44,609 bases of DNA from a virus (Duplodnaviria > Heunggongvirae > Uroviricota > Caudoviricetes), in the IMG/VR virus record IMGVR_UViG_3300045988_011059, positions 1 through 44,609 of that record; one strand, given 5' to 3'. Below the pieces are notes generated by a model. That model was not told the DNA's origin and searched no databases. It saw nothing but the letters and a program-made list of their open reading frames with translations. A program made the translations under genes and the position numbers. Below are positions 40,726 to 44,286 of this stretch, piece by piece (the first letter of the stretch is position 1; the number at the start of each line of letters is the position of its first letter).

Positions 40726-40763
40726 TGAGTGACTTACGCTGCTACACAGCAGCGTATCATTTT
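40726..40763 (+). terminator. Rho-independent terminator
   Basis: ACGCTGCT-ACAC-AGCAGCGT hairpin followed by a T-rich run. Confidence 0.6.
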
Positions 40764-42244: not shown

Positions 42245-42463
42245 ATGATATTCAGAGACCGTAGCAGCCTAAGAACGCCGGATTGTCCTACGTTCGAGTT
42301 CGAAGACAAAGACGGGGATGTCTGCTGTATTCAATTTTATAAAGACGATGAAGGCGAGTGTGGGCTTGTAGAGTTGCAGGTTTACAGCGAAACCGGTTGT
42401 GTTGTATTAAGTGCAGACGATGCTGAATCACTAGCTCGTAAGATACTTGAGGGTGTTAAATGA
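42245..42463 (+). CDS. Hypothetical protein (72 aa)
   Basis: ORF track frame from ATG 42245 with GGAGTG RBS. Confidence 0.5.
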   Translation: MIFRDRSSLRTPDCPTFEFEDKDGDVCCIQFYKDDEGECGLVELQVYSETGCVVLSADDAESLARKILEGVK

Positions 42464-42753
42464 GCCTTGCAACTGACATCCTGAAACGAAGAGGCCTTGA
42501 GCCGCTGTCACCGAGAGCTAAGACGCGCATACACAAGCGCCGCCATAACGCGCTGTACCCGGAGATTCAGGCCAGACGCAAAGCTGTCCGCGCCTGTGGG
42601 TTCCAGAACGGGAAGGCCGTAAATCTCGGTGAGTTCAAAACACAGGAACGTGCAGCTATCGCTAACCGGTTATTTAATTACTGGAAATCTCTGGGATACG
42701 ATGATATTCCGACGAAACCGCAGAGACGACAATACATCTGGAGACACAAATGA
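42460..42753 (+). CDS. Hypothetical basic protein (97 aa)
   Basis: ORF track; ATGA coupling on both sides. Confidence 0.55.
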   Translation: MSLATDILKRRGLEPLSPRAKTRIHKRRHNALYPEIQARRKAVRACGFQNGKAVNLGEFKTQERAAIANRLFNYWKSLGYDDIPTKPQRRQYIWRHK

Positions 42754-43190
42754 CTACTATCGCGTTTGACGGAAAGACAATGGCTTGCGACACGCGTGTT
42801 GTGTGCGGAAGTAACTGCTACAACACTGGCACTAAGATATACGAGAATGATTTTGCTGTTATCGGGGTGGCGGGTGATGCGGGGGTAGGCGCTATGCTTA
42901 TCGATTGCCCCGGTATCCTTCGGGCAAAGCACTATGACTTCGATTTCGAAGCCCTGGTGTTCGTGAAAGACACAGAAAAGGTGTATAAAGTCGCGTTTTA
43001 TAAATCATGGGATTGTGCCCTTAGTTCGGTTATCCCTGTCGCCGATAGCTTTGCCGCCGTTGGGTCCGGCTCGCCCTATGCGTTAGCGGCTATGTATTTG
43101 GGCGAAACCGCAACACGCGCGATTACTGTAGCCTCTCAATTCGACATTAACACCGGCGGCAAGATTATTACCAAACAACTATTAGGATAA
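42750..43190 (+). CDS. HslV / proteasome beta-type Ntn-hydrolase-like protein
   Basis: N-terminal MTTIAFDG matches the Thr1 nucleophile context of HslV (MTTIVS); IYENDFAVIGVAGDAG parallels LYNDKVIAGFAGGTADAF; AAVGSGSPYALAAMYL parallels IAIGSGGPYAQAAARAL; compared from memory. Confidence 0.65.
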   Translation: MTTIAFDGKTMACDTRVVCGSNCYNTGTKIYENDFAVIGVAGDAGVGAMLIDCPGILRAKHYDFDFEALVFVKDTEKVYKVAFYKSWDCALSSVIPVADSFAAVGSGSPYALAAMYLGETATRAITVASQFDINTGGKIITKQLLG

Positions 43191-43204
43191 TTCCTAACCG
43201 TGCT

Positions 43205-43244
43205 ATCCTCCAGTTACTGCATACTTAATACGCACCTGGAGGAT
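43205..43244 (+). promoter_or_regulatory. Hairpin sequestering the holin ribosome-binding site
   Basis: ATCCTCCAG (43205-43213) is the exact complement of CTGGAGGAT (43236-43244), which contains the GGAGGA RBS of the holin. Confidence 0.4.
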
Positions 43245-43249
43245 TCATC

Positions 43250-43558
43250 TTGGATAAATTTACTGAAACTGTGACAGGCTGGCTTCTGGCTGCCGCACTC
43301 GCTGGTGGGGTAATCGGACTACGGCAGCATAAGTCCGTTATTTCTGGCCCCATCGACGGCTTCTGCTTTATTGCAACTGGCTTCACTTGCGCCGTATTTG
43401 GCGCACCCCTCGCGGCACAATGGTTCGGCATTACTGGCGACCGTGAAATCGCCGGTCTGGGCTTCATTATCGCTATTCTCTGGATGCCTATCTATTCCCG
43501 CCTCTCTGGTATCGTTGCCGGAGAATACATCGCACGTCGAGGGGGTACAGATGAATGA
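43250..43558 (+). CDS. Holin
   Basis: 102 aa with three predicted transmembrane segments; TTG start with GGAGGA RBS; immediately upstream of the endolysin. Confidence 0.65.
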   Translation: MDKFTETVTGWLLAAALAGGVIGLRQHKSVISGPIDGFCFIATGFTCAVFGAPLAAQWFGITGDREIAGLGFIIAILWMPIYSRLSGIVAGEYIARRGGTDE

Positions 43559-43823
43559 GTTATTCTGGTTCGGCGGTATGCTGGCAATCGGGGGCACATC
43601 GCTGTTTAATGTATACCACCCAAGCGTTGACGACGGACTATTTGGCCGGGTGCTCTATATCCTGACCGCTATTGTCTGCGCTGCCGGGTGCATCCACCTG
43701 TTACAGGGCAGCATGTCCCCCACGCTGCCAGAGACATTAATCACATTAGTTGCGCTGCGTCAGATTCGTCAGGCGTGGCTATCGTACGGAGGACATAAGC
43801 GTGTCTCGAAACATTTCAGATAA
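43551..43823 (+). CDS. Holin-like / antiholin membrane protein
   Basis: ORF track frame from ATG 43551 (ATGA overlap); two hydrophobic helices. Confidence 0.55.
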   Translation: MNELFWFGGMLAIGGTSLFNVYHPSVDDGLFGRVLYILTAIVCAAGCIHLLQGSMSPTLPETLITLVALRQIRQAWLSYGGHKRVSKHFR

Positions 43824-44286
43824 TGGACTGCATTTCACCGCTGCGTTCGAGGGATTCCGCGGAACTGCGTATCGTGCTACACCAAACGAGAAGTACCTTA
43901 CTATCGGATATGGAAGCTATGGCCCTCATGTTAAGGCAGGACAGACCATCACCCCCGGACAAGGCCTCCTGTTACTGAATCGCGATATGGCTAAGGCCGT
44001 AGCTGCGGTTGACGCCGCAGCGCACCATTCCCTTACACAGGCACAGTTCGACGCAGTGTGTGACCTGGTGTATAACGCCGGTGCTGGCGTGATTGCCGCT
44101 ACCACTGGTACGGGTAAAGCGCTGCGTTCCGGGGATATTGCGACGCTGCGGGCTAAGCTGGCGCTGTTCATTAACCAGAACGGCAAACCATTACTAGGCC
44201 TGCGTCGCCGTACTGCCGGACGTCTGGCACTGTTCGACGGTAAACCGTGGCAGGAGGCTGAGGCTATTGGACGCGCGGTGAAATGA
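43801..44286 (+). CDS. Endolysin, GH24 lysozyme
   Basis: AAFEGFRGTAY catalytic Glu context and TIGYG motif as in lambda R / P22 gp19 / T4 e; GTG 43801 with GGAGGA RBS. Confidence 0.85.
   Translation: MSRNISDNGLHFTAAFEGFRGTAYRATPNEKYLTIGYGSYGPHVKAGQTITPGQGLLLLNRDMAKAVAAVDAAAHHSLTQAQFDAVCDLVYNAGAGVIAATTGTGKALRSGDIATLRAKLALFINQNGKPLLGLRRRTAGRLALFDGKPWQEAEAIGRAVK

Follow-up and report, generated by a model that had tools for sequence, protein, structure and literature searches.

The window, as the whole stretch of 44,609 nucleotides analysed here is called, is the complete genome of a Kagunavirus-like siphophage (Guernseyvirinae). A 146-aa protein encoded immediately upstream of its lysis cassette was placed by both profile and fold searches in the proteasome/HslV superfamily of Ntn-hydrolases. 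The best explanation of the results, to which a probability of about 0.65 was assigned, is that this protein is an accessory threonine peptidase of the PPH family, acting independently of HslU. An earlier note on this DNA had described it as a phage HslV/proteasome-like enzyme, starting with MTTIAFDG, about 30 residues shorter than HslV, lacking an HslU-like ATPase and encoded by the last gene before the holin. The reading frame was present exactly as described, the shorter length was borne out by the HMM alignment and the position before the holin by the gene order, and no such ATPase was found in the genome. The proteasome/HslV fold was thus upheld, but orthology to HslV was not, since the protein scored about 140 bits under both HslV cut-offs (see below). 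The features of the locus are collected in the table.

Table. Features of the peptidase gene and its surroundings (window coordinates)
Feature	Position	Strand	Basis or conservation
97-aa ORF, PHROG 9632, upstream of the peptidase gene; start/stop overlap ATGA	42460..42753	+	
Ribosome-binding site GGAG, 6 nt 5' of the peptidase ATG	42740..42743	+	Read from sequence
PPH-family proteasome-like Ntn peptidase gene, 146 aa plus stop	42750..43190	+	
Thr2 codon, predicted N-terminal nucleophile (Thr1 once Met is removed)	42753..42755	+	Thr 244/253, Ser 7/253
Asp14 codon, equivalent to Asp17 of HslV/proteasome	42789..42791	+	Asp 252/253; aligns with D17 of E. coli HslV
Lys29 codon, Lys33 equivalent	42834..42836	+	253/253, invariant
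G39-V-A-G42, equivalent of the oxyanion-hole Gly (HslV Gly45, proteasome Gly47) and next conserved Gly	42864..42875	+	
Residues 44-66, short H1 helix and 5-residue helical turn; H2 missing	42879..42947	+	Model DSSP, hmmalign
G105-S106-G107 loop; Ser equivalent to HslV Ser124/proteasome Ser129	43062..43070	+	
D132-I-N-T135-G136 motif	43143..43157	+	Conservation in relatives
Hairpin AUCCUCCAG...CUGGAGGAU, pairing the holin GGAGG Shine-Dalgarno; outside the peptidase gene	43205..43244	+	
Holin, class II-like, TTG start	43250..43558	+	PHROG 2359, E 4e-29
Second holin, class I-like	43551..43823	+	Synteny with Bas73
Endolysin, longest ORF	43750..44286	+	Pfam Phage_lysozyme, E 8e-26

The peptidase gene stands at the end of a run of small genes 5' of the lysis cassette and is accessory in this phage lineage. 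Over the surrounding 3.6 kb, nucleotide identity with many E. coli phages was ~85–90%. The adjacent 97-aa ORF had no Pfam match and, as it was also present in relatives devoid of the peptidase, it is not an obligate or dedicated partner. The only P-loop proteins of the genome were an SNF2 helicase, a helicase-primase and the terminase, with no Clp/HslU-type unfoldase among its genes, and no match was obtained with the PADLOC defence models.

The family assignment was made through the features given in the published family description (reference sequence WP_042125023.1). This description presents PPH as proteins of ~140 residues from Caudovirales and prophages, classified in group I beside BPH and HslV, without helix H2 and without the S12/H5 elements, the absence of H2 being specific to PPH and RPC. 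The window protein likewise was a single domain of ~140 residues (146 aa, the median length of its relatives) with the Thr1/Asp17/Lys33 triad and the equivalent of Gly47, and without a propeptide. The DSSP assignment of the predicted model showed helices only at residues 44–52 and 54–58 before the strand at 66–72, and the H1/H2 region had a deficit of 18 residues when aligned with E. coli HslV (hmmalign); hence H2 was missing. The model ended in the strand at 139–143, so that the C-terminal S12/H5 elements were absent as well. The gene is borne by a Caudovirales genome, relatives were found in many isolated phages, and no material difference from the published description of PPH was found. The window protein therefore fits this separate family, a minimal form (~145 aa) of the proteasome-beta/HslV fold.

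The match to the Pfam Proteasome model PF00227 stayed at 14.9 bits, below the gathering threshold of 22.4, and a precomputed match to this model was present in some relatives. The top single-sequence match in the PDB, a 4-carboxymuconolactone decarboxylase (E 9e-4 over 59 residues), was supported by neither the profile nor the fold searches and was rejected as spurious. Viral homologues of almost double the length were also seen in BFVD, namely A0A1W6DWU9 (263 aa, 55% identity) and A0A2I7R6C7, A0A5B9NBU4 and A0A6G5YGZ5 (275–279 aa); they may be RPC-like forms with a C-terminal extension, or fusions created by gene calling. Another member (115 bits, 147 aa, starting with MTTCAWDG) was located on a contig binned to a Candidatus Saccharibacteria MAG (L211, 6856–7299), a CPR lineage that is absent from the PPH hosts tabulated in 2021.

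The window protein stayed far below the thresholds of both curated HslV equivalog models, with 16.9 bits for TIGR03692 (cut-off 157.75) and 16 bits for NF003964 (cut-off 137), while the E. coli HslV control reached 288 and 304 bits, respectively; it is therefore not an HslV orthologue. The two proteins share the Ntn fold, the N-terminal Thr and the equivalents of Asp17, Lys33 and Ser124. In contrast, HslV is ~30 residues longer, the window protein being devoid of H2 and shorter in the H3/H4 region, and HslV carries Cys159 where the window protein has an Asp belonging to a proteasome-like D-x-x-T-G motif; it also has hslU as a partner, while none accompanies the window protein. BPH, the Betaproteobacteria proteasome homologue (PDB 5ovs), differs in being bacterial and longer (~185–200 aa), in keeping both H1 and H2, and in having a long acidic pore loop and double heptameric rings. 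Compared with the beta subunit of the 20S proteasome, the window protein lacks a propeptide, an alpha-subunit partner, H2 and H5. Its scores with the NCBIfam proteasome beta models were far below the cut-offs (15.1 vs 191.9 and 13.5 vs 224 bits), and no second proteasome-like gene was annotated in a related genome. A reduced fold, with the H1/H2 pair partly or wholly missing, is also found in connectase, the archaeal proteasome-like protein ligase, an example of such a protein serving one specific substrate unaided. Without HslU, only very weak peptidase activity is known for HslV, and little or none has been seen in vitro with BPH and Anbu, which counts against PPH being active by itself.

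The residues of the active site were mapped in an hmmalign alignment, built on the family HMM, of the window protein, E. coli HslV (its sequence checked against PDB 1e94_A) and a diverse set of 253 relatives, so that the equivalences with HslV are those of an HMM alignment and not of a structural superposition. The Thr-nucleophile context and the GSG block that the earlier note had pointed out were recovered in it, with Thr after Met, the equivalents of Asp17 and Lys33, and the GSG loop. Their conservation was almost complete: Thr or Ser occupied the nucleophile position in 251 of the 253 relatives, and the Lys and both glycines of the GSG loop (G105 and G107) were present in all of them, with S106 in 229. 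G39 was Gly in 177 and Ala in 71, and G42 was Gly in 251. Towards the C-terminus, D132 was Asp in 232 relatives, T135 was Thr, Cys or Ser in all 253 and G136 was Gly in 237; we take this D132-x-x-T135-G136 motif to correspond to Asp166-x-x-Ser169-Gly170 of the proteasome. An MT start was found in 240 of 259 relatives, and the presence of Thr or Ser directly after the start residue in 252 of them indicated that the family has no propeptide. Two members (P0220 and P0201) carried N-terminal leaders which, by eye, resembled signal peptides and ended just before the nucleophile (…NQSANA/TTIAWDG and …AQPGHC/TTIAWDG, the slash marking the end of the leader). If these leaders are real, cleavage by signal peptidase would expose Thr1 outside the cytoplasm. 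The window protein had no signal peptide.

HslV forms a double hexameric ring that is stimulated by HslU and ATP. Its activation by HslU involves the insertion of the C-terminal tails of HslU into pockets between HslV subunits, which are formed in the E. coli and H. influenzae proteins by Phe54, Phe57, Ala79, Lys80 and Gln114, according to published work. When these positions were followed in the HMM alignment, F54, F57 and Q114 corresponded to A48, I51 and P96 of the window protein, and the equivalents of A79 and K80 were deleted because both belong to the missing H2 segment. An unfoldase was also sought beside the gene in other viruses, namely on five long contigs from metagenomes, in eight phages with annotated genomes outside Kagunavirus and, up to four genes away, in 54 viral lineages left after dereplication. 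None was found; the only neighbours with a Walker-A motif in the 54 lineages were terminases and one PhoH. Bas73 had no HslU. Furthermore, a phage of Microbacterium, an actinobacterium, has a member of the family that scored 86.8 bits with the family HMM (43.6 for E. coli HslV), and a published survey did not record HslV for Actinobacteria. Regarding Microbacterium phage Cassita (L003, 4864–5457), the annotated GTG start of gene 16 (“protease”) truncates the N-terminus. An upstream extension of the frame, …IITTIAAKATNGK…, follows a GGAG site and points to a non-canonical ATC start that would leave the TTIA nucleophile motif intact.

Two of the roles proposed in the earlier note depend on host HslU. 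One is a hijack, by which PPH would dock on HslU (ClpY) of the host and form a hybrid ATP-dependent protease of redirected specificity. The fold and the MTTI N-terminus shared with E. coli HslV agree with it, as does the fact that HslU is encoded by the host E. coli and that the phage has no unfoldase of its own. Nevertheless, the loss of H2 and of all five pocket residues, by substitution or deletion, the lack of an accompanying unfoldase, the member in a Microbacterium phage and the export-like leaders, which would separate those two proteins from ATP and HslU, made canonical docking, and hence the hijack, very unlikely, and the large shortfall from the HslV cut-offs points the same way. PPH might still contact HslU, or some other AAA+ protein of the host, in a non-canonical way. 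The other role is that of a dominant-negative decoy poisoning HslVU, either through mixed rings with HslV or by titrating HslU, for which catalysis would not be needed. PPH is homologous to HslV and phages do inhibit host proteases, as T4 PinA does with Lon, but every catalytic residue is strictly conserved, which argues for catalysis and, together with the altered HslU-tail pocket, makes the decoy hardly credible.

The presence of the gene was polymorphic within Kagunavirus. Comparison of phage fTaEco01 (L136, 1834–1982) with the window (42700–43270) revealed a clean loss of the whole peptidase ORF, the 97-aa gene abutting the pre-holin spacer and the hairpin, both holins and the endolysin remaining intact. 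The junction retains an apparent, diverged remnant of the last PPH codons, and this sequence trace suggests a deletion rather than a primitive absence. An evenly spaced sample was taken from 119 matching records, and 53 records of this sample covered at least 90% of the query. The contiguous arrangement without PPH was observed in 37 of the 53 (~70%), including K1G, K1H, K1ind1-3, Golestan, Bas71 and Bas75, and an insert of ~440 bp containing the gene in the other 16, including Bas73, 590B, NTEC3 and RP180. Records of Escherichia phages numbered 106 for the portal and 30 for the peptidase, and those of Salmonella phages 361 and 258, respectively. Since lytic Kagunaviruses without PPH keep an intact cassette, the gene is dispensable for lytic growth and lysis. 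Where kept, it evolved under purifying selection (dN/dS 0.07–0.21 at dS 0.4–1.0), and thus behaves as a conditionally useful accessory gene.

Downstream of the gene, the 86-nt region containing the hairpin (43180–43265) had a folding energy of -22.4 kcal/mol (z -3.8), and the hairpin sequence was near-invariant across five Kagunaviruses, one of them without PPH. As it pairs the Shine-Dalgarno sequence of the holin, it may slow down translation of the holin. The longest ORF of the endolysin has a TTG start overlapping the second holin; judging from Bas73 (486 nt), translation probably begins instead at the GTG in position 43801. No terminator-like site was present between the PPH gene and the holin, the nearest one upstream on the same strand being at 40735–40756, and co-transcription of PPH and late co-expression with the lysis genes are therefore plausible.

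The genomic contexts of the family were surveyed in viral loci retrieved with a degenerate motif at the DNA level. In bacterial genomes this motif recovered chiefly genuine HslV, with 80 bits or more for the family HMM in no more than 12 of 120 loci, and the viral set was consequently re-thresholded at 80 bits with this HMM. Within four genes of PPH, the most frequent neighbours in 54 lineages were the portal (7), the endolysin (6), the head-tail adaptor Ad1 (6), and the terminase, ribonucleotide reductase and metallophosphoesterase (4 each). No neighbour family recurred in more than 7 of the 54–67 lineages, and no conserved partner or substrate gene was thus revealed. The gene lies in the early region of Xop411, in a small island within the tail module of Jedunavirus and PEi21, and in a nin-like region of a lambdoid contig. 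A placement in the connector module, between Ad1 and the head-closure gene Hc1, was observed as well (L009, 6001–6435, and loci L024, L035, L056 and L112), with Ad1 at position -1 in 5 lineages and Hc1 at +1 in 3, which hints at a morphogenetic role in those lineages. A capsid-maturation protease, an idea raised by this placement and by Bas73 having no annotated prohead protease, was rejected for the present phage, as Kagunaviruses without PPH are viable.

The earlier note had further proposed a standalone peptidase timed with lysis, which might process the holin, antiholin or endolysin or degrade envelope proteins. In Kagunavirus as in Jerseyvirus the gene immediately precedes the holin, without a terminator in between, which speaks for it, together with the Xylella phage Paz gene directly 3' of the o-spanin, the Stenotrophomonas phage BUCT627 gene ~1 kb 5' of the holin and the export-like leaders of two family members. 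However, the adjacency does not hold across the family: an endolysin within four genes in 6 of the 54 lineages is about what chance gives (8 of ~70 genes, a rough base rate), and the other contexts are many. Moreover, ~70% of the sampled E. coli Kagunaviruses, viable lytic isolates, keep the hairpin, holins and endolysin without PPH, and the window protein has no signal peptide. The link with lysis thus appears positional, and a function in lysis is quite unlikely. A non-degradative Ntn enzyme, either a sequence-specific transpeptidase or ligase similar to connectase or an amidohydrolase of small molecules, is also unlikely. The most novel suggestion, a tentative one, is a self-sufficient, unfoldase-independent and substrate-specific protease (or connectase-like transpeptidase) that would cut one host protein, such as a defence or stress-response factor.

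The preferred reading, an accessory, HslU-independent threonine peptidase, would work as follows. The initiator Met would be cleaved off by the methionine aminopeptidase of the host, which also processes E. coli HslV with the same MTTI start. Thr2 would then become the N-terminal nucleophile; the triad would be completed by Asp14 and Lys29, the backbone of Gly39 would provide the oxyanion hole, and Ser106, Asp132 and Thr135 would support the active site. As H2 and the pocket for the HslU tails are missing and no unfoldase accompanied the gene in the phages examined, the enzyme most likely acts without HslU, and we infer that its substrates would be peptides, unfolded chains or one specific protein. 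The gene would probably be co-transcribed with the lysis cassette yet be functionally separate from it.

The feature itself is already known, as the family is named and widely annotated, and the window adds no new kind of element. Relatives in GenBank are labelled “peptidase HslV family”, “ATP-dependent protease”, “protease” or “Ntn hydrolase”, and the occurrence of HslV genes in the absence of HslU was commented on in a phage genome paper of 2020. No experimental work on the function of PPH was found in the literature; a transcriptomics paper on K1B4 gave no timing for the gene and the BASEL paper linked no phenotype to it. The nearest functional datum concerns gp116 of Erwinia phage RAY, an accessory protease labelled “HslVU-family” that localises to the phage nucleus. 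New here are the neighbour statistics and the finding that the gene is polymorphic in Kagunavirus, present in some genomes and absent from others.

PPH is the only genuinely viral relative of the proteasome, with BPH and Anbu as its unfoldase-less bacterial cousins. If the protein does cut a single host protein, this would explain a mobile accessory gene that is kept under purifying selection in some phages and lost in others. A test bed is provided by the BASEL phages, as Bas73, which has the gene, and Bas71 and Bas75, which do not, are otherwise collinear at the locus and infect derivatives of E. coli K-12. The present results narrow the options for the family to a gene for which canonical docking on HslU and a role in lysis are both unlikely, and which is dispensable yet constrained.
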